Source of the DNA: Desulfobacterales bacterium
GTDB lineage: Bacteria > Desulfobacterota > Desulfobacteria > Desulfobacterales > SURF-7
Assembly (NCBI GenBank): GCA_046484745.1
Contig: JAWOIJ010000053.1
Coordinates: 45,468 to 109,467, forward strand
Length of the DNA: 64,000 nucleotides
Reading direction: 5' to 3'
Below, one piece after another: positions 31,669 through 61,290 of the stretch (position 1 is the first letter of the stretch; each line of letters begins with the position of its first letter). The notes under the pieces were generated by a model. It had not been told where the DNA came from. It saw only the letters and a program-made list of their open reading frames with translations, and did not search any database. The translations under genes were made by a program, and so were the position numbers.

Positions 31669-31956
31669 ATGGAAAAAATATTCAATGGAAAAAAAACAGC
31701 GAAATTGGGCACGAAAAAGAATCCTGCTGTTGTCAATGTACAAACAGAAAAAAGAGTGAAAGAACTGGGATCCGTATTTAAAAAAAATGGTTGGGAATAT
31801 ACCATTGAATTGGAGCCGGATAAACCCGAGGATATTGCAAACCTGGAGATATTGTTGAATCCCCAGAAAACAACGATTGTTGAAAAAAAAGTGGGCCGCA
31901 ATGAACCCTGCCCCTGTGGAAGCGGTAAAAAGTATAAAAAATGTTGTGGCGAATAA
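31669..31956 (+). CDS. SEC-C metal-binding motif protein
   Basis: C-terminal [18 protein letters not shown]. 95 aa. Confidence 0.75.
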
Positions 31957-32062
31957 GATTTTTTCATTCCGGGAATCAAGCCGCACATAACCACTTTCTT
32001 TGCAGTAATTCGAGATGTTACGGATAAATGGTCGGAAAGCCCATGCCAGGAGAGAGCAGATC

Positions 32063-32449
32063 ATGAAGAAAAACGATTCCAATAAAAACCGCGCGGAAAG
32101 CATCGTCGCCGAGGCACGCAGAAATCAAATGCAGCGTGAGCAGGGCTATCGAGAGCAGGCGCTCAAACTGTTTCCCCACATCTGCGGCCGCTGCGGACGT
32201 GAATTCAGCGGGAAACGGGTACGCGAACTCACCGTTCATCATAAGGATCACAACCACGACAACAACCCCCGGGATGGCAGTAACTGGGAGCTGCTTTGCC
32301 TCTACTGCCATGACAATGAACACTCACGACTTGAGGTTGCCGAAGCATACGATCACTCGGCGTCCTTCGAACCTTCGGAGTCTACATCTTCCGGTTTCAA
32401 AGCCTTTGCCGGACTCGATGCGCTGCTTAAACAAAAAAACAACAAATAG
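32063..32449 (+). CDS. yajD: YajD-family HNH endonuclease-like protein
   Basis: CGRCGREF...LTVHHKDHNHDNNPRDGSNWELLCLYCHDNEH. SD AGGAGAGA precedes ATG 32063; the track start 32015 is upstream. Confidence 0.8.
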   Translation: MKKNDSNKNRAESIVAEARRNQMQREQGYREQALKLFPHICGRCGREFSGKRVRELTVHHKDHNHDNNPRDGSNWELLCLYCHDNEHSRLEVAEAYDHSASFEPSESTSSGFKAFAGLDALLKQKNNK

Positions 32450-32796: not shown

Positions 32797-33210
32797 ATGA
32801 AGATCTATGTGGGGAATTTGTCGTACGATGTCACCGAAGGGGACTTGCGGCAGGCGTTAGAAGAATTCGGGCAGGTTGAATCCGCCACCATTATAAAAGA
32901 CAAGTATAGTGGTCAATCAAAAGGATTTGGATTCGTGGAGATGCCCTCGAAAGATGAGGGGCAGTCTGCAATCGATGGCCTGAATGGCAAAGAATTCAAA
33001 GGAAGAACGCTTAACGTAAATGAGGCTCGCCCTCGAACTGAAAGTCGGGGCCCCAGAGGCGGACAGGGCGGCGGCAGAGGCGGACAGGGCGGCGGCAGAG
33101 GTGGACAAGGCGGCGGCAGAGGCGGTCAGGGCGGCGGAAGAGGTGGCCAGGGCGGCGGTGGCAGAGATGGTGATCGAGGAGGACCAAGAGGCGGCGGCCG
33201 CAGCTATTAA
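32797..33210 (+). CDS. RRM-domain RNA-binding protein with a C-terminal RGG/Gly-rich repeat tail
   Basis: RNP2 KIYVGNLSY and RNP1 KGFGFVEM, then a GGQGGGR x5 tail. SD AAAGGAGA. Confidence 0.9.
   Translation: MKIYVGNLSYDVTEGDLRQALEEFGQVESATIIKDKYSGQSKGFGFVEMPSKDEGQSAIDGLNGKEFKGRTLNVNEARPRTESRGPRGGQGGGRGGQGGGRGGQGGGRGGQGGGRGGQGGGGRDGDRGGPRGGGRSY
33058..33165 (+). repeat. In-frame 21-bp tandem repeat (about 5 units) encoding GGQGGGR
   Basis: ggcggacagggcggcggcaga repeated head-to-tail with a few synonymous or near-synonymous changes. The last unit is one codon longer. Confidence 0.9.
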
Positions 33211-33410: not shown

Positions 33411-33728
33411 GCTGTTTTCAAAGGCCGTTGCCCGCGAGTTGAATTTTCGCATCAGCTCGCCGCAGGCGGATCGTTGCGGGTGGTGGTTTGCCCGGATTTT
33501 TTTGTGCTTCGATATTTTTATTTTTCCGCAACTGCAAATTTTAAAACTGTTACAAATTATTGACGATTTTTAAATCTTCTGCTACCAGTATATTTCAACA
33601 CTGCTGCATTGAAACCGATCCTGCGGCACAGCTCAGAATCAGTCGGATTGGTTATGATATTTTCGATCGTATAAAAGTTGAGAACCGTTAATTGCACTGA
33701 ATACTACTATCCGAACAAGGTATCAAAA

Positions 33729-35201
33729 ATGTATAGAGAGGATTTTATAAAAGAGCTGAGATCAGAGCTGCTGGATCTGGTTGAGAAACATCTTTCACCG
33801 ATTGCAAAACGATATAATTACAGTGAGACGCCACTGGAAACCACCATCAGGTGGCGGCCTCTTGTGCTGGTTTTGGGCAATTATTCATCCGGAAAATCAG
33901 CACTGATCAATGAATTTTTAGGTGCGGATATTCAGGCGACCGGACAGGCGCCAACAGATGATTCGTTTACCATTCTGACGCATGGTGATGCTGACGCTTC
34001 TGTCAATCGTATTCATGTTACAGAAGAACGGGACGGCAAATACCTGCTGAATGATCCAAAATACCCTTTTCAGAATTTAAAAAGACACGGGCAGCGATTT
34101 GCTTCTCATTTCCGGCTGAAGAAGGTTAATTCACCCATACTGAAAAATTTTGCTCTCATCGATACACCCGGAATGCTGGACAGTATCGCCGAACAGGACA
34201 GGGGATATAACTTTCAGGAAGTAATCGGTGATCTGGCTCAGATCGCCGACCTTATTCTTGTGCTGTTTGATGCCCACAAGGCTGGAACCATTCGGGAGAC
34301 GCACATCAGCCTGAGAGATACCCTGCCTGCTCACACATTTGAAGATCGGGTAATTTTTGTGTTGAACCGTATTGATGAATGTTCATCCCTTGCGGATCTT
34401 CTTCGGGTTTATGGCACGCTTTGCTGGAATCTTTCTCAGATTACCGGCCGCAAAGATATTCCCATGATTCGGCTTACCTATTCACCCAGCGCAGCAGCCA
34501 ATTCCATGGATCAGCAAAATCCGGAAACCGGCTACCTGAGATATCTCAAGAACCAGAGAGAAGATTTGAAAAAGGCTGTACTGGAGGCTCCACGGCACCG
34601 GCTCGATAATCTGGCAAGTTTTGTTGAACTCCATTCAGAGCGGCTGTCTAATTATATTGAGGCACTTGTGAGCTATGGAAAGAAGCGTCGAAGGTTTTTT
34701 ATAAAACAATTTTTTATGGGGCTGTTTCCCAGCATCGGCGCCGGCGCGGCCGCAATGTCTCTTTTGCTCAATTTTGGATTGATGGGATGGTTTCCGCCTC
34801 CCGTGATGCTGGGTATCGGCGGCGGCATTTCCATTTTTTTCCTTTTTCTATGGTTAGCTTTTTTCAGCCGGATGCTGGTGAAACGGTTTCACAGAAAACA
34901 GGTAAAGAAGATCGATAACCTGGTTTCTCTGGACAATCAGAGTCTCCGGGACAGTTGGGCTGCTGTCCGGGATCTGGCAATAAAATATCTGGAAAAAACA
35001 GAGGGCAAATTTTCTCTGTGGCGTATGGAAGATGATTATTTCGCTGTCAAAAGAATCCTGGAAGAGGGAACAAAAGAAATTCGAGAGACAATCAGTGAAA
35101 TTGCAGCGATTCCCCCGGGTGAACGGGTAGACAATCCTCCAGGCCCTTTTCTATCCGCGCTTGCCAGACAGATGAATGAGCCCGATGCCGCTTTCCGATG
35201 A
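33729..35201 (+). CDS. EHD-like dynamin-superfamily NTPase with a C-terminal membrane hairpin
   Basis: P-loop GNYSSGKS (33876..33899), LIDTPGMLDS, RGYNF, LILVLFDAHK, VLNRID, LLRVYGTLCWNL. Two adjacent hydrophobic segments (...FFMGLFPSIGAGAAAMSLLLNFGLMGWFPPPVMLGIGGGISIFFLFLWLAFF...). The track start is TTG 33678; I prefer ATG 33729. Confidence 0.8.
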   Translation: MYREDFIKELRSELLDLVEKHLSPIAKRYNYSETPLETTIRWRPLVLVLGNYSSGKSALINEFLGADIQATGQAPTDDSFTILTHGDADASVNRIHVTEERDGKYLLNDPKYPFQNLKRHGQRFASHFRLKKVNSPILKNFALIDTPGMLDSIAEQDRGYNFQEVIGDLAQIADLILVLFDAHKAGTIRETHISLRDTLPAHTFEDRVIFVLNRIDECSSLADLLRVYGTLCWNLSQITGRKDIPMIRLTYSPSAAANSMDQQNPETGYLRYLKNQREDLKKAVLEAPRHRLDNLASFVELHSERLSNYIEALVSYGKKRRRFFIKQFFMGLFPSIGAGAAAMSLLLNFGLMGWFPPPVMLGIGGGISIFFLFLWLAFFSRMLVKRFHRKQVKKIDNLVSLDNQSLRDSWAAVRDLAIKYLEKTEGKFSLWRMEDDYFAVKRILEEGTKEIRETISEIAAIPPGERVDNPPGPFLSALARQMNEPDAAFR

Positions 35202-35262: not shown

Positions 35263-35667
35263 ATGAAAGGATCAAAGATGAAATCATTCATAAACGCGGC
35301 AATATCCATTCTTTTCCTGACCGGCATCATTTTGAGTTGTGAAAGTTCAAAGACCGAACTCTCCTTTCAGGACATTCCGCATTACCCCGCATCCATACCG
35401 GAGCAGCACATGGAAGGTTCCGGATTTTCCGAAACAGCAGGGGAGGAGCTTAAACTGCTTTCTACAACCGACCCGTTTAAAACCGTCGTCGCATTTTATA
35501 CGGATGAACTGAATCAATACAATCCGGAAGTCATATCCCAGGCTTCCGAACCGGGGCGGCAGACGGCAATAACCGTCAAGCAGGGAACAAAGGTGTTAAC
35601 CGTGGTAATCAAGGAGCATGGTAAGGAAGGAAGGGTTGTGATAACCCATATGGCTGCGGGGGAATGA
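35263..35667 (+). CDS. small lipoprotein, unknown function
   Basis: Signal peptide with lipobox GIILSC; about 110 aa mature. ATG 35278 is an alternative start. Confidence 0.6.
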   Translation: MKGSKMKSFINAAISILFLTGIILSCESSKTELSFQDIPHYPASIPEQHMEGSGFSETAGEELKLLSTTDPFKTVVAFYTDELNQYNPEVISQASEPGRQTAITVKQGTKVLTVVIKEHGKEGRVVITHMAAGE

Positions 35668-42399: not shown

Positions 42400-44781
42400 A
42401 TGCTGTTTTCTGCCGCCAATCAAGGGCCTTTTGTGACACAGCGAATATCTGAACTGAAGAAAACGGTACAGGAATATCGACCGGGAATCTGCACGGAACG
42501 GGCTCTGATCTGGACCAGCTATTTTAAAAAAACTGAAAATCGAAAGAAGCCTGTTTGCATCCAGATTGCGGAAGCTTTTAGGGAGGTCCTTGCAAAGAAG
42601 ACCATTAAAATTTATCCGGGTGAGCTTATTGTCGGCAACTTCACGTCAAAACGAGTCGGTGGCGAGATACAGCCTGAACTTCTTGGAATGCTGGTCATGG
42701 AGGATATCTTTAAATTTCCGCGGAGGAAAACAAATCCCCTTCAGATATCCGGCCGGGAAACATGGCAGCTTCTTAAAATCATTCCTTTCTGGATGTTTCG
42801 TTTTCTTGCTATCCGGGTTCACAAATCTCCTCTTGTGACAATACGAAAAATGCTCAGCCAGTTGAAATCCTATTTTTATGTGATGAATGAAGTCGGCGGC
42901 ATTGCTCACACGGTTCCGGATCATGAAAAACTGATCCGGATTGGAACAGAGGGAATTGTCAAAGAGGTATCGGAGTATCAGAGTCGATGCAGGAAGAACT
43001 CTGAGCAGTGGCATTTTTATGAGGCGGTAAAAATCAGCGCCCATGCCTTTGCCATGTTTTGCGGACGATACCGGCAGACGGCCCTGAAGATGGCGGAAGT
43101 CGAGCAAAACCCGGATGAAAAAGAAAATTTGATGACAATTGCAGATGGTTTCGAAACAGCGCCCGAGAAAGGGGCCTCTACCTTCCGGGAGGCTATTCAG
43201 ACAGCCTACCTGGCCCATATCGCAGTCATGCTGGAAAGCCTGGATAATTCCATTGGAATAGGCAGGATGGATCAATATCTTTTTCCCTATTATGATCAGG
43301 ATGTAAAAAGAGGAGTGCTGAGCCGTGAGCAGGCAAAGGACCTGATTGCTGCCTTTTCAATTAAAATGTGTGAACTGGTTCCCGTGTTTTCAGAAAGAAT
43401 CATCAATTTTCACGGAGGATTTTACAATGCCCAGGTCGTTGCTGTCGGTGGTTTAGACCGGGAAGGTAATGACGCGACAAATGAACTCAGCTATATTTTC
43501 CTCGAGGTGATGAATGAGCTCAGAATGAGGGAACCCAATTATCATGCCCGCCTGCATTTGGGCTCACCCCCGGAATTTATGGACAAGATCATATCCAATC
43601 TCTGCTCGGGATCGAATACACCGGCGCTTTATAATGACGGGGTTATCATCGAAACGATGGTCAAAAACGGTTACAGCCTGGAAGATGCGAGAAACTACAG
43701 CACAGTCGGATGCGTTGAGGCGATTTCACCGGGAAAGAGTTTCGCCTCCACCAATGCGGCAATGGTGAATGTCCCGATTATTCTTGAGCTGGCGCTAAAC
43801 CAGGGAAGGCGGTTTCACTCCATTATCCGTCAAGGGGCAAGTACTCTTCCGGTATCGAAGATGAAAACGATGGATGATGTGAAAAAAGCCTTTGAATCGC
43901 AGCTATGTTTCCAGATCAATAACCTTATCGAGGATCTCCAGGCGCTTGAACGCGCGAATATGAAGTACCATCCGACCCCCTTCACAAGCATGCTTCATGA
44001 CGGATGCATCGCATCGGGCAAATGCACCACCCAGGGCGGAGCCATTTATAATTTTTCAGGCATCCAGGCGGTTTCACCCATTGCGGCAGGAGATGGGCTT
44101 TACGCAATTGAGAAGGCTGTATTCAAGGATCGCAGGATTTCCCTGCCGGATCTGGTTCGTTTATTAAAAAGAAATATTGATGATCCGGAGCGGCTGGCCT
44201 ACTTGAAAGGACTCAAAAAATTCGGCAATGACGAGGAAGAAGTGGACAGGTGGTCTCTTTATGTTGTTGACGCGTTCAGGAAGTCGTTGAGCGGCTATGT
44301 CAATACACGGGGAGGAAAATATATCATGGGGATATACTCTGATACGATTCATGAGTTTTTCGGACGTATTACAGGCGCTCTTCCCTATGGGAGAAAAAAG
44401 GGAGAGAGTTTTTCTTCCGGTATCGCCCCGGGAAACGGATTTGACATTAATGGCCCAACCGCACTTTTCAATTCAGTCAATCGGTTTGATTTTACAGCCA
44501 TCGCAAACGGAATAAACTTTAATTTCAAGCTCAGCCCTCATACGGTAAGCAGTGAAACAGGACGGGCAGCCCTGTCCGGTTTGCTCAAGACCTATTTTAA
44601 AAGAGGGGGGATGCAGGTACAGACCAATGTACTGGATCCCGAAGAGCTGATCCGGGCGCGAAATCATCCTGAACAGTATCCGAATCTGCTTGTCAGGGTT
44701 TCCGGATACTCGGTCTATTTTAATGATCTGACCCCGGTGATGAAGGAAGAAATTATACGAAGAAGCACGCTGTCCGTATAG
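42400..44781 (+). CDS. glycyl-radical enzyme, PFL2/eliminase-type (GRE-1)
   Basis: 793 aa. Cys loop STVGCVE (Cys438 codon 43711..43713, Glu440). C-terminal glycyl radical motif LLVRVSGYSVYFNDL (Gly769 codon 44704..44706). Confidence 0.92.
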   Translation: MLFSAANQGPFVTQRISELKKTVQEYRPGICTERALIWTSYFKKTENRKKPVCIQIAEAFREVLAKKTIKIYPGELIVGNFTSKRVGGEIQPELLGMLVMEDIFKFPRRKTNPLQISGRETWQLLKIIPFWMFRFLAIRVHKSPLVTIRKMLSQLKSYFYVMNEVGGIAHTVPDHEKLIRIGTEGIVKEVSEYQSRCRKNSEQWHFYEAVKISAHAFAMFCGRYRQTALKMAEVEQNPDEKENLMTIADGFETAPEKGASTFREAIQTAYLAHIAVMLESLDNSIGIGRMDQYLFPYYDQDVKRGVLSREQAKDLIAAFSIKMCELVPVFSERIINFHGGFYNAQVVAVGGLDREGNDATNELSYIFLEVMNELRMREPNYHARLHLGSPPEFMDKIISNLCSGSNTPALYNDGVIIETMVKNGYSLEDARNYSTVGCVEAISPGKSFASTNAAMVNVPIILELALNQGRRFHSIIRQGASTLPVSKMKTMDDVKKAFESQLCFQINNLIEDLQALERANMKYHPTPFTSMLHDGCIASGKCTTQGGAIYNFSGIQAVSPIAAGDGLYAIEKAVFKDRRISLPDLVRLLKRNIDDPERLAYLKGLKKFGNDEEEVDRWSLYVVDAFRKSLSGYVNTRGGKYIMGIYSDTIHEFFGRITGALPYGRKKGESFSSGIAPGNGFDINGPTALFNSVNRFDFTAIANGINFNFKLSPHTVSSETGRAALSGLLKTYFKRGGMQVQTNVLDPEELIRARNHPEQYPNLLVRVSGYSVYFNDLTPVMKEEIIRRSTLSV

Positions 44782-44864
44782 AGGAAAGACCTCCTTAACA
44801 CTTTGAGTTAATTGATATTTAAGGATTGAATGAGATGAAAAGGCCATTCAGGATCGAAAAAAGC

Positions 44865-44893
44865 TTGACTCGCTATATATACTTTATATATAT
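44865..44893 (+). promoter_or_regulatory. sigma70-like promoter embedded in a (TA)n-rich tract upstream of the PadR gene
   Basis: TTGACT, 17 nt, ATATAT, inside ctatatatactttatatatatatattgtatatataaa. Confidence 0.45.
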
Positions 44894-44954
44894 ATATTGT
44901 ATATATAAATTCCATCCGGCTGGATGAACTAAAATCTATCAAATACAGGATGAT

Positions 44955-45497
44955 ATGGCGATAAAATATTCAATATTGGGGTTGCTGCACTATACGGACA
45001 TGCACGGGTATCGAATCAAAGAGCATATTGAGCGCAATTTCGGCCATATGTGGTCGATCAACTTCGGCCAGATATACCCGAATCTGAAAAAAATGAAGGC
45101 GGAAGGCTTGATTTCAATGACGGAAGTCATTCAAAACGGTGAAAAGGGACCGCCTCGAAAACGATATTCCATAACCCAAAAAGGAAGAGCGGAATTTATC
45201 AAATGGCTTGAGAGTTCACCTGAAAAAACGATGATTCTCAGGGATCCCTTTCTGATGCGTTTTGTTTTTTATGGATTCGGGGATTACCGGAGGTCGCTTG
45301 AAATGATCGAGAAACAGATTTCTGTCTATGAGAATCAGCTGGCAAGAAGGAGAGAAAACCTAAAAAAATGGCGTAAAAGAGGCATCTATGTCGAACTGAT
45401 ATCTGAGCTTGGAACCGATATGAATGAAATGATTCTGGAGTGGTTGAAACAGGCTAAAACAAAAATAATAGATCATTATAAAGAGGAAGTGAAATGA
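44955..45497 (+). CDS. PadR-family transcriptional regulator
   Basis: ILGLLHYTDMHGYRIKEHIERNFGHMWSINFGQIYPNLKKMKAEGLI wHTH plus a C-terminal helical domain. 180 aa. Confidence 0.88.
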   Translation: MAIKYSILGLLHYTDMHGYRIKEHIERNFGHMWSINFGQIYPNLKKMKAEGLISMTEVIQNGEKGPPRKRYSITQKGRAEFIKWLESSPEKTMILRDPFLMRFVFYGFGDYRRSLEMIEKQISVYENQLARRRENLKKWRKRGIYVELISELGTDMNEMILEWLKQAKTKIIDHYKEEVK

Positions 45498-46480
45498 ACT
45501 TCACTGGGATTTCCCTTGTAACCGGCGCCGGCGGTTTTATGGGCAGCCATGTTGTTGAACATCTCGCGGGAAAAGGCATCAAGGTAAGAGCGACGTCAAG
45601 GCCCAGAAAGGACCTGTCCTTTTTTGACAGACTTGGCGTAGAGTATGTTGCTGCGGATCTTACACGGCCGGAAACCCTTTCGCGACTTTTTGAAGGTGAC
45701 GTGGATCGCGTTTTTCATCTTGGCGCGATCTGTAATTTTTCCACCCCTTTTGAAAAACTCTATCCCACCAATGTCAAGGGGGTGGATAGCCTGACCGATC
45801 TTGCTCTTCAGCATGGTGTAAAAAGATTTATTCATGTCACCTCAACCAGTGTATATGGATATTATAAAGGAACACCTTTCAGGGAAACCGACAAGCCGGA
45901 TCCCATGGATGACTACGCGCGAAGTAAAAAGGAAGGCGAGGAGGTTGTTTTTAAAAAGCTCGCACAGGGGCTTCCGGCGGTTATTGTCCGTCCTCCTACT
46001 GTCTATGGCCCAAGATGTAATGACGGCGCGGGAAAAGTATTTTCAAGACCTTCGAAAATCAGCGCCTTTCCCGGAAGTGGAAAACAGCTTCTCGCAAATG
46101 TCAGAGCCGAAGATGTCGCCGCCGCACTGGAACATCTTTCCTGCCTGGATGATGCGGTGGGAGAGATTTATAATATCGCAGACGATACCAATCCGACACT
46201 TGAGGAAGCCTTGACACTTTCCGCGAAGACTTATACCACAACAGCCCCGAAACTGCACCTGCCGCTTTCCATTGTAAAATTTTCAACGATTCTGGATGGA
46301 TTTTTTTCCCGGCTGAGAGGTAAAATACCGGAGTTGGAATATGATGCGGTAAAGTATCTGTACTTTGATTATGTGGTTGATAATACGAAACTGAAAAATA
46401 CCGGTTTCGCCCTGCGATATCCGGATTTCAGGGAATCCATGGCGCAGCTGGGGAGGCGGTTCCAGCAAAGCCATGCGTAA
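45494..46480 (+). CDS. NAD-dependent epimerase/dehydratase (extended SDR) family protein
   Basis: VTGAGGFMGSHVVEHL, YARSKKEGE (YxxxK). ATGA overlap with padR. Confidence 0.85.
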   Translation: MNFTGISLVTGAGGFMGSHVVEHLAGKGIKVRATSRPRKDLSFFDRLGVEYVAADLTRPETLSRLFEGDVDRVFHLGAICNFSTPFEKLYPTNVKGVDSLTDLALQHGVKRFIHVTSTSVYGYYKGTPFRETDKPDPMDDYARSKKEGEEVVFKKLAQGLPAVIVRPPTVYGPRCNDGAGKVFSRPSKISAFPGSGKQLLANVRAEDVAAALEHLSCLDDAVGEIYNIADDTNPTLEEALTLSAKTYTTTAPKLHLPLSIVKFSTILDGFFSRLRGKIPELEYDAVKYLYFDYVVDNTKLKNTGFALRYPDFRESMAQLGRRFQQSHA

Positions 46481-46540
46481 AAGGTTCGTCATCGTGAAAC
46501 AGGAAGTCGTTACAGAAATGCATCGCGAACAGGAGGTCAT

Positions 46541-47371
46541 ATGAGTCAGATTGTTGTAATTACCGGCCTGGCCCAGGGAATGGGAAAAGAAATTGCCGAA
46601 ATGCTGGCGCGTTCCGGAGATAAAATTGCAGGTTTTGACGTTGATCCGGATGGGATCGCCAGCCTGAAGAAAACGCTTGATGGGATTGGCTGTGATAATC
46701 ACCTGGATGTCATTGATATTACCGACAGAGAAAAAATTCTGAAATTCCGCGACCAGGTACTCGAAAAATTCGGGAAGGTGGATACGGTGGTATCCAATGT
46801 CGGGATCGGCTTTTTCGGTCCTTTCGAAGAGATCGATCTGGAGAAAGCCTTGAAGTGTTTTGAAATCAACGTAATCGGAGCGTCCGCAATATTTCAGGCA
46901 TTTATTCCTTCCATGCGGAAGGCAGGCCGCGGTAAACTGATTGCCATGTCTTCGCTGGTAGGCCGGATACCCTTTCCCTTTGAATCCATTTATACGGCTA
47001 CCAAGTTTGCCATAGAAGGACTTGTCGAATCAATCAAGTATGAAGTAGAGCCTTTTGGAATCCGTACGGCTCTGATAGAGCCGGCACAGGTTTCTACCGA
47101 CTTTGCTGCAAAAATTCATGTGCTTCCTCCCGAAGGATCTCCATACCGCGAACGCGCAAAACGGTTTATCGACCGTGACAATGAACTGATCAAAACGGCA
47201 ACCACTCCTGTTGCTGCCGCAAAAAGAATCGTAAAAGTGATTCGGTCCGAAAAACCGAAACTTCATAACCAGGTTGATTTCATGAGTACTTTTTTTCTGT
47301 TTTTGAACTGGATATTGCCGAAAAAGATCAGGGATGTCATCCTGGTCAATCATATGGATATCAAGGTTTGA
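46541..47371 (+). CDS. SDR-family oxidoreductase
   Basis: ITGLAQGMGKEIA, SNVGIG, YTATKFAIEG (YxxxK). 276 aa. Confidence 0.85.
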   Translation: MSQIVVITGLAQGMGKEIAEMLARSGDKIAGFDVDPDGIASLKKTLDGIGCDNHLDVIDITDREKILKFRDQVLEKFGKVDTVVSNVGIGFFGPFEEIDLEKALKCFEINVIGASAIFQAFIPSMRKAGRGKLIAMSSLVGRIPFPFESIYTATKFAIEGLVESIKYEVEPFGIRTALIEPAQVSTDFAAKIHVLPPEGSPYRERAKRFIDRDNELIKTATTPVAAAKRIVKVIRSEKPKLHNQVDFMSTFFLFLNWILPKKIRDVILVNHMDIKV

Positions 47372-47425
47372 AATGATTTTGTTATGGGTCTGTCAGAAAA
47401 ATAATTTTAAACGCAAGGAGCCGTT

Positions 47426-49807
47426 ATGGAACCCGAACTGCTAACTCCCGAACAGATTGCCGAAGACCGTGTCGGAAGATTGAGGCAAAGGCTGATCAAC
47501 GCGCCGCAGGAAGTTTGTGTTGAAAGGGCCCGATATCTGACACAGGCCATGAAGGAAAACTGGGACAAAGACCATCTGACACGGATGAGTCTCGCGCTCG
47601 AGAAAATTCTGCACAACATTAGCATCGCCATCCGGGAGGATGAAATTATCGTGGGCTGCCGTACGAGCAAGCTGAAAGGCGCTCCGCTCTTCCCTGAAAA
47701 CAAGGTTCGATGGCTTGCAATCGATGTGGAAAATTTTGACAGGCGGATGGTTCAACGCGCACTCATACGGGAAAATGAAAAACAGGAGCTTTTGAATGAT
47801 ATTATTCCGTTCTGGGAAGGAAAAACCGTTGAAGACCGATATGAGGCACTCCTTCCGGATGAGATCGCGGAAGATGTGGATAAATATGTTTTTACCTTTA
47901 TGCTGCAAATAACCTATGGAATCGGCCATTTTACAATGGATCACGCCAAGGTTCTTGCCATGGGGCTTTCCGGAATCATTGACGAGGCACAAAACAGGCT
48001 GGGACTCCTTTCTGAAAAAGAGAAAGCTGGTGAAACCGGAAAGTTTTACGAATCGGTAATCCGATCTCTCCATGCGGCGATTCATTTTGCCCGAAGATTC
48101 TCGAAGCTGGCTTCACAGATGGCCGGAGAAGCGAATGATCCGGTCAGAAAAAAGGAACTGGAGGAGATCGCTCTGGTGTGCAGCCGGGTTCCTGAAAAAC
48201 CCGCTGAAACCTTTCATGAAGCGGTGCAGAGTTTCTTTTTTATTCATCTGATTTCTCAGATCGAATCCGGCGGAAATTCGATTTCACTGGGACGAATCGA
48301 TCAGGTTTTGTATCCTTTTTATAAAAAGGATCTGGAGAGCGGTAAGATTACGCCGGCTAAAGCAAGAGAGCTCCTCTCACTCCTTTTTCTCAAAATCGGA
48401 GAATTATGGAATGTGCTCGAAGAGGCTTATATCCCCGGCGGGGAGGGGACAGAGGGAAAAACAACGCAGAATGTCACTGTCGGGGGTATTGACAGAACCG
48501 GAGCCGATTCTACCAATGAGCTGAGCTATATCGGTCTGGATGCATATGCGGCTATCCGGACGGTCCAACCCAATTTTGGTGTACGCCTCAGTAAAAAATC
48601 TCCGGAGTTTTTCTTCATGAAGGCAATCGAGTATGCCAAAGACGGGGTTCTTCTTCACTTTCTCAATGACGATGCCATTGTTCCCTCTCTCATCCATGCC
48701 GGGCATGCAGAGGAGGATGCGAGAGACTACGGCGTTGTCGGCTGCCTGGAACCCAATGCGCAGGGGAAAACGTTCGGTTCCACATTTGCCGCGCAATTCA
48801 ACGGGTGCAAGTGCCTCGAATTCGCGTTGAGCAACGGGGTGGACAATATTTTCGGCTACACCTCCGGTCTTGAAACAGGCGATCCCGCCGATTTTAAAAC
48901 ATTTGAAGATGTCTGGTCGGCATATGACCGTCAGGTCATTCATTTTATCGGCCAGTTAACCGGTGGAATGGAGTGCCTTGACCGGGCAATCTCCGAACTG
49001 GTTCCGTCCCCGTTTGCTTCGGCAATGATCGAAGGCCCTCTTGAAAAAGGAATGGATCTCACAAAGGGCGGTGCCGTATACAACTCAACCGGGGTCCAGA
49101 TCATGGGCTTTTCCAATATAGCGGACAGCCTTTATGCGGTTAAAAAAATGGTGTTTGAGGAAAAGAAATTCTCGTTTGCCGATCTGGTCAAGTGGCTTTC
49201 GGACGACTGGATGGATGCAGAAGATAAACAGGTTTTTTTCCGAAACAAGGTTGAAAAATACGGCAATGACATCGGCCCGGTAGATGAGATGGCCGTGAAA
49301 GTAGCCGGGCATTTTTGTGATGTTCTTGAAAAATACCGCAATTTTCGAGGCGGAGCGTATTGGCCGGGAATTTTTTCCGTAGGGTTTCATATCACCATGG
49401 GCGCATTCACTGCAGCGACTCCAGACGGCAGGTTTGCCGGAGATGCTCTGGGAAACGGGGTTACGCCCAGCAATGGCCTTGCGGTCTCAGGTCCTACTGC
49501 GATTATGAATTCAGTCAGCAAGCTCCCCCTGCGGCGGATTTATAATGGAATGAATCTCAATATGCGTTTTCAGGGAAAAAAGATAAAAAGTCGTGACCTC
49601 ATGTCTCTGATAAAAACGTATTTTGGTAATGGAGGATTTCAGGTTCAATTCAACATGGTTGATTCCGATACGCTTCGAAATGCGCAGGCAAAGCCTGAGA
49701 GTTATCGGGATCTTGTTGTCAGGATCAGCGGATATTCCGGTATATTTATCAGCCTGAGCGATATCGCCCAGGATGAGATCATCAGAAGAACCGAATATGA
49801 AATGTAA
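47426..49807 (+). CDS. glycyl-radical enzyme, PFL2/eliminase-type (GRE-2), paralog of GRE-1
   Basis: 793 aa. Cys loop VVGCLEP (Cys440 codon 48743..48745, Glu442). Glycyl radical motif LVVRISGYSGIFISL (Gly769 codon 49730..49732). Confidence 0.92.
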   Translation: MEPELLTPEQIAEDRVGRLRQRLINAPQEVCVERARYLTQAMKENWDKDHLTRMSLALEKILHNISIAIREDEIIVGCRTSKLKGAPLFPENKVRWLAIDVENFDRRMVQRALIRENEKQELLNDIIPFWEGKTVEDRYEALLPDEIAEDVDKYVFTFMLQITYGIGHFTMDHAKVLAMGLSGIIDEAQNRLGLLSEKEKAGETGKFYESVIRSLHAAIHFARRFSKLASQMAGEANDPVRKKELEEIALVCSRVPEKPAETFHEAVQSFFFIHLISQIESGGNSISLGRIDQVLYPFYKKDLESGKITPAKARELLSLLFLKIGELWNVLEEAYIPGGEGTEGKTTQNVTVGGIDRTGADSTNELSYIGLDAYAAIRTVQPNFGVRLSKKSPEFFFMKAIEYAKDGVLLHFLNDDAIVPSLIHAGHAEEDARDYGVVGCLEPNAQGKTFGSTFAAQFNGCKCLEFALSNGVDNIFGYTSGLETGDPADFKTFEDVWSAYDRQVIHFIGQLTGGMECLDRAISELVPSPFASAMIEGPLEKGMDLTKGGAVYNSTGVQIMGFSNIADSLYAVKKMVFEEKKFSFADLVKWLSDDWMDAEDKQVFFRNKVEKYGNDIGPVDEMAVKVAGHFCDVLEKYRNFRGGAYWPGIFSVGFHITMGAFTAATPDGRFAGDALGNGVTPSNGLAVSGPTAIMNSVSKLPLRRIYNGMNLNMRFQGKKIKSRDLMSLIKTYFGNGGFQVQFNMVDSDTLRNAQAKPESYRDLVVRISGYSGIFISLSDIAQDEIIRRTEYEM

Positions 49808-49827
49808 TGGATAAAGGAAAAAATTGA

Positions 49828-50763
49828 ATGGAAAAGGTGATGACAATCAAAGAGGCGGTTTCCAGGTTTGTTCGATCAGGAGATTTCCTGTATATCGGCG
49901 GATATATCTGCAGACCTCCTTTCTCGGCGATTCATGAAATTATCAGGCAGGGGCTCAAGGATCTGACCATAACCCGATGCAATGCCGCTGATGATTTTGA
50001 CATGCTGATCGGCGCGGGCGCTGTAAAGCGTTTTATCGGGACATTTCTTTCCCTTGGGGTATATGGGCTTGGCCGCTGCTACAGGCGATCAATTGAAAAG
50101 GGAATTCCGCATAAGGTTGAAGTGGAAGAATACTCCAACCTGTCGCTTCCGATGATGCTTTTTGCAGGATCGATGGGGATGCCTTTTGTTCCGGTTAAAG
50201 ATATGGTGGGGACCGACCTTTTAAATGTCAGATCATTTATGGGGGACAACAAATACAAAATGATCGATTCTCCGTTTGATGGAAGCCCGACACTTCTGGT
50301 CCCGGCGCTGCACCCTGATGTCGCGATCATTCATGTACAGCAGGCTGACAAGTACGGCAATGCGCAGATATGGGGTATTGCCGGTGACTGTCAGGCAGGA
50401 GCCAATGCTGCCGAAAAGGTCATTGTTTCCTGTGAACGGATCGTTGACCGGGAGATAATCGGGAAAGACCCTTCGCGCACGATCGTTCCTTCTTTCAAGG
50501 TGGTGGCGGTTGTGGAAGAACCGTTTGGAGCTCATCCCGGGTATACTCCCGGATTTTATGATGTGGATTTTTCATACGGTTATCTGTATCAGCAGGCCTC
50601 CAATACGGTTGACGGGTTTAATGATTTTTTAAAAGAATGGGTATATGACATAGAAGACCGGAATGCATACATACAGCATTTCATTGAACGCTTCGGGTAT
50701 GAGGTATTCAGCAAGCTTCAGGCGGATTTTGATTACAGCTATCCGGTTAGCTATGCCTATTAA
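49828..50763 (+). CDS. CoA-transferase subunit A (family I, glutaconate-CoA-transferase-like)
   Basis: MTIKEAVSRFVRSGDFLYIGGY and ALHPDVAIIHVQQADKYGNAQIWG are typical of the alpha subunit. Confidence 0.82.
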   Translation: MEKVMTIKEAVSRFVRSGDFLYIGGYICRPPFSAIHEIIRQGLKDLTITRCNAADDFDMLIGAGAVKRFIGTFLSLGVYGLGRCYRRSIEKGIPHKVEVEEYSNLSLPMMLFAGSMGMPFVPVKDMVGTDLLNVRSFMGDNKYKMIDSPFDGSPTLLVPALHPDVAIIHVQQADKYGNAQIWGIAGDCQAGANAAEKVIVSCERIVDREIIGKDPSRTIVPSFKVVAVVEEPFGAHPGYTPGFYDVDFSYGYLYQQASNTVDGFNDFLKEWVYDIEDRNAYIQHFIERFGYEVFSKLQADFDYSYPVSYAY

Positions 50764-50805
50764 AGATAATTAAAAACTTTTTAAAGCTTCTTGCGGAGTG
50801 GAAAC

Positions 50806-51606
50806 ATGACAAACAGTTTGAAGGAATATATCAAACCGGAGTTGATGGCGTGCTGCGGGGCAAGGGAAATCAAAGACAATGATATTGTTATCGTGGGCAC
50901 CGGCTTTCCGACCATGTCCGCCAATATCGCCAAGCAGACACACGCACCGAATGTAATATTGATGCAGGAATCCGGCGTGATCGATGCCCGGCCCAAACGG
51001 CCGGCGCTGTCAGTCGGAGATCCCTGTCTTAACCCGGGCGCGGCAATGGTGGGAGGGCTTCTGGAAATTATGGGAATGTGCCTTCAGGCCGGATGGGTTG
51101 ACGTAGGTTTTCTGTCCGGAAGCCAGGTAGACAAGTTCGGAAATATCAACACCACGGTAATTGGTGATTATCACAAACCCAAAAGCCGTCTGCCCGGAAG
51201 CGGAGGTGCGAATCCAATCGGATCCCTGGTGAAAAGGACATTGATCATTGCGTTGCATGACAAAAGACGGCTGGCGGGAAAAGTCGATTTTATTACGACA
51301 CCCGGCTATATTGACGGGCCCGATGCAAGACGGAAATGGGGACTTCCGCCGGAGACCGGTCCGGAATGTATTATTACGAATAAAGCGGTATTGAGGTTTG
51401 ATTCGGAGAGCCGGGAGGCTTATCTGGCTTCTTTTCATCCCGGATCTTCGGTAGAGGAAATCCTTGAAAACACCCCCTGGGACCTCAAGGTCGCGGAAGA
51501 TGTTCATGAAACAGAACCGCCCACGGTTGAAGAGCTGAAAGCGATTCGGGAGGTGCTGGATCCCCACAGAATGATCAGTATGTATGAAAAGCGCGGATAT
51601 GTATAG
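50806..51606 (+). CDS. CoA-transferase subunit B (family I)
   Basis: VGTGFPT, candidate catalytic Glu in LMQESGVID, DKFGNINTTVIG, PGSGGANPI. SD GGAGTGG precedes ATG 50806; the track TTG 50791 is upstream. Confidence 0.82.
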   Translation: MTNSLKEYIKPELMACCGAREIKDNDIVIVGTGFPTMSANIAKQTHAPNVILMQESGVIDARPKRPALSVGDPCLNPGAAMVGGLLEIMGMCLQAGWVDVGFLSGSQVDKFGNINTTVIGDYHKPKSRLPGSGGANPIGSLVKRTLIIALHDKRRLAGKVDFITTPGYIDGPDARRKWGLPPETGPECIITNKAVLRFDSESREAYLASFHPGSSVEEILENTPWDLKVAEDVHETEPPTVEELKAIREVLDPHRMISMYEKRGYV

Positions 51607-51708
51607 AACCAGTTCCATCAATGATTTTTAAAATCCGTTTCGGTTATACTGTCTAAATTTTGTCCGGCATTAAACGGGATGGATATTTGACCTGTAATGG
51701 AGGAATCA

Positions 51709-53076
51709 ATGGATCATACCAGAAAGCTGGCTGATTTTTGTTCAGACCTGTCACTTAAGGAACTCCCCCCGGAAGTCATTCACATGGCAAAACGATGCGT
51801 GCTGGATTATATCGCCAACATTTACGGTTCACTTCAACTCGATGCGGTACAGCGGGTGATCTCATACATCAAGACGATTCAAAAAAACGGGGATACAACC
51901 GTTCTGGGCTGTGATTTTAAAACCAGCATACATCTGGCCGCTTTTATTAACGGTACCACCGCAGAGGCCATAGAAGCGCAGGATGGCGTCCGTTTTGGAG
52001 GCAACCATCCCTGTGCGGCCGTCATCCCGGCAGCTTTTGCCGTGGCGGAACAAAGAAATTCAGGCGGCGGCAGATTCATAGAAGCGGTGGTTGCCGGATA
52101 TGAGGCGGCCAACAGACCGGCTGCCGCCATGCATCCCTGGCATACACTTTCAGGGTTTCTGCCAACAGGGACTTGTGGCACATTCGGAGCGGCAGCAGCA
52201 GCAGCCAAACTCAGCGATTTTACCGCAGACCAGATGTTGAATGCCATTGCAAACGCGGGCTATATTCTTCCCATTTCCATGGCGGAACATTTAATGGGAG
52301 GATATACCATAAAAATCGTTCAGGGCGGACAGGCGGCCGGTGCCGGAATTATGGCTTCCGGTCTTGCCGGAGCTGGTCTTACCGGCACCCCCTTTGTTCT
52401 TGAAGGCTCCGAACTGAACGGAGGGTTCACCAAGATCACCACGCAGGTAGCGCCGAAATTTAATCTGATCTCCGATGACCTGGGAAAGAAATATTCCATC
52501 ATGGATGTCTATTTCAAACCCTATACAGCCTGCCGGCATACCCATGGTGCAGCCCAGGCAGCCCTTGAACTGGCAAGGGAAAATAAAATTGGACCGGAAG
52601 ATGTTAAAACCGTTGAAGTACATACATACGGAATCGCGGAACTGGCTGTTGGAAAAGGCGTAGCGGAAAATGATACTTTTGTATCCGCCCAGTTCTCTAT
52701 TCCCTATGTTGTTGCCGTGTGCCTGTCAGATGGCGAACTCGGTCCGAAACAGCTTACGGAAAAGAGACTGGCGGATTCCAACCTGATCGAGCTTTCCAGA
52801 AAGATTCGTGTAACAACAGACGAAAAACTGAACCAGGCATATCCGGATAAAACCAGCAGCCGGATTGAAGTCTGCTTGAAAAATGGAGAAATCCTGAAAA
52901 AGCAGATTGATATTCCAAAAGGAGATCCGCGGGATCCAATGGATGTGGATGACATTGCCGCAAAGATTAAAAATTTTGCAGACCAACGCGATCCTCAGAA
53001 GCTCGATGAACTGATCGGGATGATCCTCGAGCTTGAAAAGGTGGACAGTGTTCGAAGAATTATAGAAATGATTTAA
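51709..53076 (+). CDS. MmgE/PrpD-family protein (2-methylcitrate-dehydratase superfamily)
   Basis: LADFCSDLSLKELPPEVIHMAKRCVLDYIAN and FKPYTACRHTHGAAQAAL are characteristic of the family. Confidence 0.85.
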   Translation: MDHTRKLADFCSDLSLKELPPEVIHMAKRCVLDYIANIYGSLQLDAVQRVISYIKTIQKNGDTTVLGCDFKTSIHLAAFINGTTAEAIEAQDGVRFGGNHPCAAVIPAAFAVAEQRNSGGGRFIEAVVAGYEAANRPAAAMHPWHTLSGFLPTGTCGTFGAAAAAAKLSDFTADQMLNAIANAGYILPISMAEHLMGGYTIKIVQGGQAAGAGIMASGLAGAGLTGTPFVLEGSELNGGFTKITTQVAPKFNLISDDLGKKYSIMDVYFKPYTACRHTHGAAQAALELARENKIGPEDVKTVEVHTYGIAELAVGKGVAENDTFVSAQFSIPYVVAVCLSDGELGPKQLTEKRLADSNLIELSRKIRVTTDEKLNQAYPDKTSSRIEVCLKNGEILKKQIDIPKGDPRDPMDVDDIAAKIKNFADQRDPQKLDELIGMILELEKVDSVRRIIEMI

Positions 53077-53142
53077 TGCAGGCTCTGGTCTGAATTTTTG
53101 CCGGAACCCTGTAGAAGGATCGACAATATACAAGGAGGACAA

Positions 53143-54303
53143 ATGGACTTTAGTTTGAACAAAGAACAGACCATGTTGATACAGTCTCTTCAGGATATGG
53201 GAAAAAGAGAAAAGTTCACGGAACTTGCCGCGGAAACAGACAGAACAGGGGAATTCCCTCATTATTTAATGCAAAAGTATGCGGAGATGGGGCTGATCGG
53301 CATGTCTCTTTCCCCGGAGTACGGAGGAGAAGGCGAACCTTCACTCACGGCCATTCTGGCTATTGAAGCACTGGCAAAATACAGTCCCATGATTGCCGCA
53401 CCTGTTTTCGAGTCCAATGTCGGTCCGGTCAGGGTGATTGACATGTTCGGCACTGATGAACAGAAAAAGCGTATTATTCCCGGTGTCTGTAAAGGAGAGT
53501 TCAGCGTATCGGTCTGCATGACGGAGCCGGAGGCAGGTTCGGACCTGACGTCTCTTTCCACGATACTTGAAAAAAAGGATGGCCATTATGTTCTAAATGG
53601 CCGGAAATCCTTTATCACAGGTGGCGGTATGGCCAGTCATTATCTGGTTTATACCCGATTTGGTGATGTAAAGGGATATAAGGGCATCGGTGCGGTTATT
53701 GTCGAAAAGGGAACGCCCGGCTTCAGCTTCGGGAAACAGGAAGAGTTCATGGGGCTCCGCGGGATGCCTTCATGTGATCTTTTTTTTGACGACGTTGCTG
53801 TTCCGGAGGAAAATATCGTCATCCGCCAGGGTGATTTCGGCAACCTCATGCTGACTTTTGATATCGAGCGATGCGGGAATGCCGCGATGTGCCTTGGAAT
53901 CGCCGGCGGCGCTCTCGATTTTGCCAGGGCCTATGCTCTGGAGAGAAAAGCGTTTGGCCGTCCGATCTGCGAATTTCAGGATATTCAGTTTATGATCGCG
54001 GACATGGCCATGAAACTCGATGCGGCCCGTCTTCTTGTATATCGCGCTGCAAACGGGGCGGGCCAGGGGCTGCCGTCAATCTATGAAGCTTCCATGGGAA
54101 AATGTTTTGCCAATGAGATGGTGCGGGAGGTTACGGATAAGGCCATGCAGATACTGGGAGGCTACGGATACAGCAAAGAATTTCCCGTTGAACGGATGCT
54201 CCGGGACAGCCGGGCATGGGGCGTGGCCGGGGGAACCCTTCAGATGCTGAAGGTGACCATGGCCAGTATTGTTTTCGGCAGGCGCTTTGACCAGAGAAAA
54301 TAG
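53143..54303 (+). CDS. acyl-CoA dehydrogenase
   Basis: MTEPEAGSDL, KSFITGG and the catalytic-base context GGYGYSKEFPVERMLRDSR. SD AGGAGG precedes ATG 53143. Confidence 0.9.
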   Translation: MDFSLNKEQTMLIQSLQDMGKREKFTELAAETDRTGEFPHYLMQKYAEMGLIGMSLSPEYGGEGEPSLTAILAIEALAKYSPMIAAPVFESNVGPVRVIDMFGTDEQKKRIIPGVCKGEFSVSVCMTEPEAGSDLTSLSTILEKKDGHYVLNGRKSFITGGGMASHYLVYTRFGDVKGYKGIGAVIVEKGTPGFSFGKQEEFMGLRGMPSCDLFFDDVAVPEENIVIRQGDFGNLMLTFDIERCGNAAMCLGIAGGALDFARAYALERKAFGRPICEFQDIQFMIADMAMKLDAARLLVYRAANGAGQGLPSIYEASMGKCFANEMVREVTDKAMQILGGYGYSKEFPVERMLRDSRAWGVAGGTLQMLKVTMASIVFGRRFDQRK

Positions 54304-54399
54304 GCTGCCGGCTGGAAAACAACGATTTCAATTCATGAATGTGACGTCGATAAGCAATCGACTTGACATTGAGAACCATTTCACCTCAGGGAGGGATTT

Positions 54400-54840
54400 A
54401 TGAGCGAGTATTATCGTGATGCAGATCATCTTTTGGAGATATACGATTATTTTTTATCCAATGTGCTTCAGGACAAGAAGATCGGGCCGAAAATGGCGAA
54501 ATCGAACATCATTATCAAGTTTATATACACCGATCCGGATTGTGAAATCACAATTGATTTTAAAAATCCGCCGGAAAAAGAAGGCTACTTCGGCAACTTT
54601 TATCTGGGACCGACTCCTCTTAAAGAAGATGTATGGTCCAAACAGAGCGCGGATCACTCGCATCGATTCTGGCATGGTTTTGAAAATCCGATCGCGGCGG
54701 TTACGAGAGGGAAGGTAAGGCAGGGCGGAAAGATAACGGCCATGCTGAAACTGCTGCCTGTTGTCAAGCCCACCTTTAAAAGGTTCCCGGAGATTCTGAA
54801 GGAAATGGGTTACGAAAATCTGATCGTTCATAAAAAATAA
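54400..54840 (+). CDS. SCP2 (sterol-carrier-protein-2-like) lipid-binding domain protein
   Basis: IIIKFIYTDPDCEITIDF...AVTRGKVRQGGKITAMLKLLPV resembles the SCP2 fold pattern. 146 aa. Confidence 0.55.
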   Translation: MSEYYRDADHLLEIYDYFLSNVLQDKKIGPKMAKSNIIIKFIYTDPDCEITIDFKNPPEKEGYFGNFYLGPTPLKEDVWSKQSADHSHRFWHGFENPIAAVTRGKVRQGGKITAMLKLLPVVKPTFKRFPEILKEMGYENLIVHKK

Positions 54841-54886
54841 AAAAGACCTGGCTTATCAATCAAAATGTTGTCTGCAGGAGTCAATT

Positions 54887-61279: not shown

Positions 61280-61290
61280 ATCCTCTCCTT

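Follow-up and report, generated by a model that had tools for sequence, protein, structure and literature searches.

A stand-alone dynamin-family protein of a Desulfobacterales bacterium is a member of the bacterial EHD-like/MfnL family with a predicted transmembrane hairpin at the stalk tip

Introduction

How closely can a bacterial dynamin resemble the EHD proteins of eukaryotes, and what would such a protein do at a bacterial membrane? EHDs play a central part in endocytic recycling and in caveolae, and a prokaryotic origin of these proteins bears on the rise of eukaryotic membrane trafficking. The question is raised by a single dynamin-family gene at positions 33729-35201 of a 64,000-nucleotide stretch of Desulfobacterales DNA (assembly GCA_046484745.1, contig JAWOIJ010000053.1), here called the window. 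An earlier note made from the sequence had described its product as an EHD-like ATPase, closest to EHD, with a transmembrane hairpin in place of the EH domain and a possible part in phage defence. We find that the window protein is a new, as yet uncharacterised dynamin-superfamily protein, belonging to a bacterial EHD-like/MfnL family that has already been published. While this family assignment and the architecture are near certain, the cellular role, which is argued by analogy, is much less so. In the role that we consider probable, a stand-alone, inner-membrane EHD-like/MfnL-type dynamin, driven by nucleotide, shapes the cytoplasmic membrane from within the cell. Because family and architecture are in the literature, the finding adds a member and detail rather than a new concept.

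Results and discussion

Kinship to EHD in sequence, profile and fold

The gene is enclosed by an open reading frame (ORF) at 33678..35201 on the forward strand, and its true start is the ATG at 33729, because homologs start with MYRE and align with 100% coverage and an AAGG lies 9 nt upstream. The limits given in the earlier note are thus those of the gene. A Pfam scan of the window protein matched Dynamin_N (E = 2.9e-18) and MMR_HSR1 and nothing else. It found no EH domain or EF-hand, as the note had said of the EH domain, and NCBIfam held no family-specific model, returning only GTPase matches far below threshold.

All nine motifs that the note quoted from the window are present in the translation, and all nine EHD motifs that it had listed occur in mouse EHD2, where a HMMER alignment shows them to be collinear and in the order given. 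The resemblance goes far beyond chance. A phmmer search against all PDB chains returned EHD2 first (2.6e-30, 108 bits, with query residues 3-318 on EHD2 14-315) and EHD4 second (1.8e-28). The best non-EHD entry, a Campylobacter dynamin-like protein (DLP), scored 1.2e-4, and IniA and Drp1 were near 1; as judged from these sequence scores, non-EHD DLPs stand at least 20 orders of magnitude behind EHD2 and EHD4. A family profile built from 35 homologs likewise matched EHD2 at 1.8e-32, and the best other dynamin-family entries were SynDLP (0.011) and BDLP (0.07). The profile alignment to EHD2 stops at the end of the G domain and leaves the helices after the hairpin unaligned, so that equating these helices with EHD alpha9-12 rests on the fold match and not on sequence.

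An AlphaFold2 model was computed from an alignment of 35 sequences (mean predicted local distance difference test (pLDDT) score 79, predicted template modelling score (pTM) 0.68). Comparison of this model with the PDB by Foldseek, a check that the earlier note had proposed for EHD2 and EHD4, ranked EHD4 first (5mtv; E = 1.4e-15, target-normalised template modelling score 0.64) over 476 columns spanning the G and helical domains at ∼20% identity. Membrane-bound EHD4 (7sox) and EHD2 (4cid, 2qpt) came next. A second tier, in the range of 1e-8 to 1e-6 (best non-EHD match 1.1e-8), held IniA, BDLP, Campylobacter DLPs and mitofusins. BDLP, mitofusin/Fzo1 and atlastin are thus second-tier fold matches with sequence E values of 0.07 or worse, and they differ from the window protein in their dimer and oligomer interfaces. 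A search of a viral fold library returned generic giant-virus dynamins only. Sequence, profile and predicted fold agree with the claim that the protein is nearer to EHD than to other bacterial DLPs, and they point to kinship with EHD specifically, rather than with BDLP, DynA, LeoA or IniA.

With EHD1-4/RME-1 (2QPT, 4CID, 5MTV, 7SOX) the window protein has in common the motifs GxYSxGK[ST], PT-D-F, DTPG, RGY-F and LFDAHK, the motif YGxLxW with its interface-1 Trp, the PF of the KPF loop, and a predicted composite helical domain made of an N-terminal helix and helices that follow the G domain. It differs from them in having no linker, no EH domain (which binds NPF in EHDs) and no NPF of the KPFxxxNPF loop.

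One family described twice

The claim that the protein is closest to EHD holds among solved structures. By sequence score, however, trypanosomatid MfnL-type proteins are closer (160 vs 108 bits). Eukaryotic members among the top matches are from Trypanosoma rangeli (P0248, 612 residues), Porcisia hertigi (P0226, 598 residues), Symbiodinium and another dinoflagellate. In BLASTP the window protein matched P0248 at 3e-47 (160 bits, 32% identity). An hhalign comparison with a profile of subfamily B (defined below), trypanosomatid and dinoflagellate sequences gave a probability of 100% and an E value of 8e-84 over 432 columns; query residues 7-461 lay on P0248 105-595, through the hairpin and the C-terminal helices, which amounts to full-length homology. 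The best solved relatives of P0248 are likewise EHD2/4 (1e-28), with the next at 4e-3.

The founder of this second family, TbMfnL (Tb927.7.2410), was introduced as representing a 'new' dynamin family (bioRxiv 10.1101/2023.06.28.546890). According to that preprint, TbMfnL consists of a 41-residue targeting peptide, a G domain and two consecutive C-proximal transmembrane (TM) helices, and is anchored in the inner membrane of the mitochondrion and faces its matrix. Its overexpression approximately doubles mitochondrial junctions (branching), an effect abolished by the G1 mutation K141A. Eukaryotic homologs were listed from kinetoplastids, euglenids, diplonemids, dinoflagellates, stramenopiles and haptophytes, and bacterial homologs from the PVC group and Proteobacteria (Myxococcales, Gammaproteobacteria); the authors predict that the bacterial proteins sit at the plasma membrane and face the cytosol (bioRxiv 10.1101/2023.06.28.546890). 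Desulfobacterales are not named in the list, and the preprint contains zero occurrences of EHD. P0248, with its 612 residues, resembles TbMfnL in size, in its N-terminal extension and in its TM pair, and has its P-loop Lys at position 150, as compared to K141. Primers for Tb927.7.2410 printed in PMC4560804 encode FGIHFV and ILMFDP, and P0248 has FGMHFV (205-210) and LLVFDP (275-280) in the same order.

In the window protein as in TbMfnL/MfnL, the G domain is followed by a consecutive pair of C-proximal TM helices and by a helical tail. Unlike MfnL, the window protein lacks both a mitochondrial targeting peptide and an N-terminal extension, and it carries GNYSSGKS and NRxD-E where the trypanosomatid, dinoflagellate, Myxococcales and Bradymonadales members have GNHSxGKS and NKxD. 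Two Symbiodinium members of the TM-hairpin family (P0227 and P0263) are auto-named 'EHD2' in UniProt/NCBI; their P-loop, GNHSxGKS, is of the bacterial/MfnL type, so that the name is likely a misnomer.

A separate line of work also leads to these proteins. Schaffer et al. 2020 described EHD and sarcalumenin as being of bacterial origin, and reported that the bacterial EHD relatives carry a C-terminal pair of TM helices (PMC7016017), a description that matches the window protein. This was a computational mention within a paper on endoplasmic reticulum calcium stores, with no subfamilies, nucleotide determinants or analysis of the hairpin position. The family has therefore been described twice already, under the names of bacterial EHD relatives and of MfnL, and joining these two threads is a small addition of the present analysis. 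The 'EHD-like' proteins of PMC9723716 are a different matter, as that paper deals with Ehd hydrogenases.

Two bacterial subfamilies and the position of EHD

The family is large. A word-indexed search returned at least 1,863 homologs, the best 120 of which are 59-90% identical to the window protein and come from Thermodesulfobacteriota or 'Deltaproteobacteria' metagenome-assembled genomes (MAGs). Database names are 'dynamin family protein' at NCBI and, for some JGI entries, the automatic 'EH domain-containing protein 1'. A scan of one genome per species gave relatives in at least 542 genomes. The 80 best of these all belong to Desulfobacterales, and among them are the cultured species Desulfosarcina widdelii, D. 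alkanivorans and D. cetonica. An exhaustive HMMER search of 1.84 billion representatives yielded 174 clusters at E ≤ 1e-30, 751 at E ≤ 1e-10 and 1,677 at E ≤ 1e-3.

The top 150 representatives fall into two subfamilies. Subfamily A, which holds the window protein and also occurs in Zetaproteobacteria and other Pseudomonadota MAGs, has the P-loop GNYSSGKS, a G4 motif beginning with NR (22/23) and Glu as the next residue (21/23). Subfamily B, hosted by Myxococcales, Bradymonadales and Wenzhouxiangella, has GNHSxGKS and an NKxD motif in all 70 of its representatives, followed by a variable residue. The dimer-helix motif YGxLxW is present in 20 of the 23 subfamily A and 68 of the 70 subfamily B representatives.

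EHD does not single out the window protein among these bacterial relatives. When compared with an EHD2 fragment, the window protein scored 109 bits and both subfamilies had medians near 111 bits, with some subfamily B members reaching 166 bits. In a rough neighbour-joining tree of 103 representatives and the EHD2 fragment, built with no outgroup and for that reason not decisive, EHD2 was about equidistant from the two subfamilies (1.78 and 1.73) and grouped with subfamily B in 25/50 bootstraps, a weak lean. Because of these subfamily B scores and the near equidistance of EHD2 in the tree, the window protein is placed in a bacterial group that is sister to EHD, without being EHD's single closest bacterial relative.

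A hairpin at the EHD stalk tip

The helical domain of EHDs is a composite of segments before and after the G domain (PMC9741607). A composite of the same kind is predicted in the window protein, where the AlphaFold2 model joins helix 3-28 with helices within residues 287-459 (Table 1). In the model a single continuous helix (287-348) extends from the stalk into TM1 and is followed by an 8-residue turn and a returning helix at 357-393; this helix and those at 404-424 and 430-459 have pLDDT values of 80-90. The C-terminal helices align by hhalign to the C-terminal region of the trypanosomatid MfnL-type proteins. The earlier note had placed two hydrophobic segments at 34.70-34.88 kb, and they were found at the coordinates listed in Table 1, with Kyte-Doolittle peaks of 1.7 and 2.2 and basic flanks (KKRRR and KRFHRKQVKK). 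Because these basic clusters bracket the hydrophobic pair, both ends of the hairpin are predicted to be cytoplasmic. Hydrophobic segments occur at this site, after the G domain, in nearly all full-length representatives of both subfamilies.

That the protein has a hairpin and no EH domain was correctly noted, but the hairpin does not take the place of that domain. The sequence alignment to EHD2 pairs query residues 301-318 with EHD2 300-315 and ends at query Y316-G-K318 on EHD2 Y313-L-K315, immediately before EHD2 F322, K324 and K327-329. The stretch KKRRR-FF-TM1 starts within ∼7 residues of the site of Phe322, where the tip of the EHD2 helical domain inserts into the membrane, which identifies the hairpin as an expanded, permanently inserted EHD stalk tip rather than a substitute for the EH domain. 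Between the hairpin and the end of the protein lie ∼100 residues of conserved helical sequence, and the EH domain and its linker are simply missing. At the hairpin site EHDs carry the polybasic/Phe322 loop, whose membrane attachment is peripheral and reversible.

G domain motifs and the nucleotide

Invariance of G domain residues was scored across 35 homologs that are 58-90% identical. The G1, G2 and G3 motifs all align with their EHD2 counterparts (Table 1), and R158-G-Y160 (RGYDF in EHD) and F180-D-x-H-K184 (LFDAHK in EHD) are invariant. The KPF loop forms oligomer interface-2 of EHDs (PMC9741607); in the window protein the alignment retains its PF within YPF, and the NPF portion of KPFxxxNPF is missing thereafter. 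On helix alpha6, the EHD-specific dimer interface-1 contains a conserved Trp, W238 in EHD2 (PMC9741607), and the alignment indicates that this Trp is kept as W233.

The G4 motif departs from that of EHD. A Met directly after NKxD in EHDs blocks the guanine amino group and so confers ATP specificity (PMC5084822). In the window protein this Met is replaced by Glu217, which is invariant along with R214, I215, D216 and C218, while N213 is nearly so. The 'ATPase' label of the earlier note is for this reason not justified from the sequence: ATP specificity is not implied by NRID-Glu in place of NKAD-Met, and GTP appears the more likely substrate. With its invariant NRxD-Glu, the Desulfobacterales/Zetaproteobacteria subfamily may differ from both EHD and MfnL in nucleotide specificity or regulation.

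Residues 309-314 of the T. rangeli protein P0248 hold NKVD followed by Met, an EHD-like combination also seen in 7 of the 70 subfamily B representatives. TbMfnL is termed a GTPase in the preprint from the K141A mutant alone (bioRxiv 10.1101/2023.06.28.546890); given the G4 and Met of P0248, TbMfnL-type proteins might use ATP.

These observations bear on whether the window protein could be a true prokaryotic EHD, that is, an ATP-driven membrane-scission enzyme like EHD1/RME-1. EHD2/4 are its best solved relatives by a wide margin, and the dimer-helix Trp, the PF of the KPF loop, RGY-F and LFDAHK are common to both. The guanine-excluding Met, however, is an invariant Glu, the G4 Lys is an Arg, the EH domain is missing, and MfnL-type proteins are nearer to the window protein than EHD is. 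Furthermore, attachment by a TM hairpin is permanent, as opposed to the reversible polybasic loop, so that the recruitment-and-release cycle of EHDs cannot be carried over unchanged. On balance we regard a true EHD as improbable.

A static membrane scaffold that binds nucleotide with no turnover would also accommodate a G4 motif that deviates from the canonical NKxD, and a matrix-side dynamin-like pseudoenzyme is mentioned in the TbMfnL preprint. The P-loop Lys and Ser, the switch-I Thr and DTPG are nevertheless all invariant and argue for catalysis, making a pseudo-enzyme very hard to credit.

Table 1 Features of the dynamin-family gene and its product (residue numbers refer to the window protein)
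Feature	Position in window	Strand	Basis
EHD-like/MfnL-type dynamin-family gene, 490 residues	33729..35201, stop codon included	+	ORF, homolog N-termini, AAGG, Pfam, EHD2 match
N-terminal helix, residues 3-28	33735..33812	+	AlphaFold2 helix; aligns with EHD2 14-40; part of composite helical domain
G1/P-loop GNYSSGKS, residues 50-57	33876..33899	+	Invariant; aligns with EHD2 GQYSTGKT
G2 threonine T76, in APTDDSF	33954..33956	+	Invariant; aligns with EHD2 EPTTDCF
YPF, residues 112-114, counterpart of EHD KPF loop	34062..34070	+	P113 and F114 invariant; aligned with EHD2 KPF
G3 DTPG, residues 145-148	34161..34172	+	Invariant; aligned with EHD2 DTPG
G4 variant NRID + Glu217, residues 213-217	34365..34379	+	EHD counterpart NKAD + Met
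YGTLCW, residues 228-233, EHD alpha6-equivalent helix	34410..34427	+	W233 invariant, matches EHD2 W238 in alignment
Stalk helix, residues 287-324, EHD alpha8 equivalent	34587..34700	+	Ends in basic KKRRR (residues 318-322)
TM hairpin: TM1 residues 325-352, turn WFPPP, TM2 residues 358-381	34701..34871	+	Hydropathy, AlphaFold2
Returning helices, residues 382-459	34872..35105	+	Conserved F387, Q404, D408, W410, G426, R452, E453

Proposed action at the cytoplasmic membrane

The reading that we favour is a dynamin that acts on the cytoplasmic membrane from within the cell. The hairpin would anchor the protein in this membrane and leave the termini, G domain and stalk in the cytoplasm, and a constitutive dimer would form through the alpha6 helix. 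Nucleotide binding would then pair the G domains of adjacent dimers and produce filaments or rings at the inner face of this membrane; the assembly would be reset by hydrolysis, as in the EHD cycle (PMC9741607). The hairpin could serve both as an anchor and as a curvature-inducing wedge in the inner leaflet. By analogy with TbMfnL, the output would be the shaping, connecting or maintaining of the cytoplasmic membrane from the inside, the cytoplasmic side being topologically equal to the matrix side from which TbMfnL acts on the mitochondrial inner membrane.

Several points weigh against this proposal. Dimerisation, oligomerisation, membrane topology and nucleotide preference of the window protein are all inferred, the bacterial members being known from sequence and prediction alone, and the AlphaFold2 structure is a prediction from a shallow alignment (35 sequences, 58-90% identity). 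The function of eukaryotic MfnL is itself unsettled, since loss-of-function phenotypes of TbMfnL are contradictory: knockout/knockdown had no phenotype in one study and caused mitochondrial fenestration in another. The view of P0248 as the Tb927.7.2410 ortholog draws on architecture, size, the position of the P-loop Lys and two hexapeptides, which are supportive but not proof. Finally, no neighbours are conserved in 80 related loci, so that genomic context offers no hint of function.

The combination of features is of interest in its own right. The family keeps the EHD-specific dimer helix and stalk geometry, yet it is permanently membrane-anchored, which offers a simple and genetically isolated setting in which to ask how membranes are bent by a scaffold of the EHD type. 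Such experiments are feasible because cultured Desulfosarcina species carry the gene. We also raise, as a speculation that we hold to be less probable than its opposite, that the TM-hairpin family is the prokaryotic stock of two eukaryotic lineages, the cytosolic EHDs and the mitochondrial MfnL proteins, with subfamily A possibly differing in nucleotide specificity or regulation. If so, the EHD line would have reduced the hairpin to the Phe322/poly-Lys loop and gained the EH domain. This common origin of EHD and MfnL is a link not drawn in the MfnL literature, where EHD goes unmentioned.

Genomic neighbourhood and the question of defence

Neighbourhood conservation, which the earlier note had suggested examining, was judged in 80 related loci. 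The window neighbours are a GMC oxidoreductase, SEC-C, HNH and RRM proteins, a lipoprotein-like ORF, an M24 peptidase, a MarC-like protein and a short-chain dehydrogenase/reductase. When nine neighbours were searched by tblastn, no match lay beside the homolog in any of these loci, and de novo clustering of neighbours in the same loci found none above 14/80, the best being a pyridoxal phosphate (PLP)-enzyme-like protein. The small lipoprotein gene to which the note had drawn attention does exist as a lipoprotein-like ORF (35263-35667, +, 134 residues). It lies downstream of the dynamin gene at a distance of 62 nt, and its product has an N-terminus like a signal peptide and contains ILSC, which resembles a lipobox. 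Neither Pfam nor NCBIfam gave a match to this ORF, which is absent beside the homolog in all 80 loci. With no recurrence of the nine neighbours and at most 14/80 for any other, the dynamin gene has no operon partner and the lipoprotein is incidental. As the note had also said, the gene stands singly: no second DLP gene was found beside it in the window or in 79 of the 80 related loci, and there was no tandem or fused pair or LeoABC operon. BDLPs, in contrast, usually occur as tandem pairs.

This context also bears on the phage-defence role that had been suggested, or more broadly on a dynamin for membrane-damage surveillance and repair or anti-phage action like DynA, IniA or LeoABC. Bacterial DLPs provide a general precedent for such functions, cited in the discussion of the TbMfnL preprint, and PADLOC gave matches of the window protein to LeoBC (1.5e-7, residues 271-458) and LeoA (7e-5). 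These matches are weak and generic, as any DLP would give, and they are accompanied neither by a three-gene operon of the Leo type nor by a second DLP gene in tandem or fused form. Moreover, defence genes are absent among conserved neighbours, the window is housekeeping chromosome with no sign of a mobile element or defence island, and a conserved single gene in hundreds of Desulfobacterales species fits a core role better than a patchy defence gene. A repair or defence dynamin is accordingly an unlikely account, and the suggestion of phage defence was not borne out. The LeoBC match falls on the stalk, hairpin and return helices (window 34539-35102) and not on the G domain; the membrane-proximal half of the protein may have a common origin with the paddle region found in bacterial dynamins of the LeoB/C type.

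Other genes of the window

Rfam and tRNA scans of the whole window gave no matches, and a promoter/terminator scan gave background level only. Upstream of the dynamin gene, 32797-33210 (+) encodes a bacterial RNA-binding protein of the RRM_1 type (E = 1.3e-23), whose C-terminal tail is made up of five tandem GGQGGGRG repeats; the protein resembles eukaryotic and cyanobacterial glycine-rich RNA-binding proteins. Two small adjacent genes at 31669-32449 (+) encode a 95-residue protein ending in a SEC-C zinc motif and a 144-residue HNH-motif protein; their weak PADLOC matches (PDC-S12/E2 and ZorE) probably come from the short motifs alone. The rest of the window is ordinary chromosome, with genes for ribosomal protein S1, IMPDH, DnaE, Tsp and a MacB-type efflux system, along with anaerobic catabolic genes. 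Among the latter, two paralogous 793-residue glycyl-radical (PFL-like) enzymes lie in a candidate catabolic cluster at 42400-56755 (+) and 59285-62478 (-). Their partners are an NAD-dependent epimerase/dehydratase-family protein, a CoA-transferase, an MmgE/PrpD protein, an acyl-CoA dehydrogenase, two aldehyde:ferredoxin oxidoreductases and an Fe-alcohol dehydrogenase, and the region looks like an anaerobic catabolic cluster.

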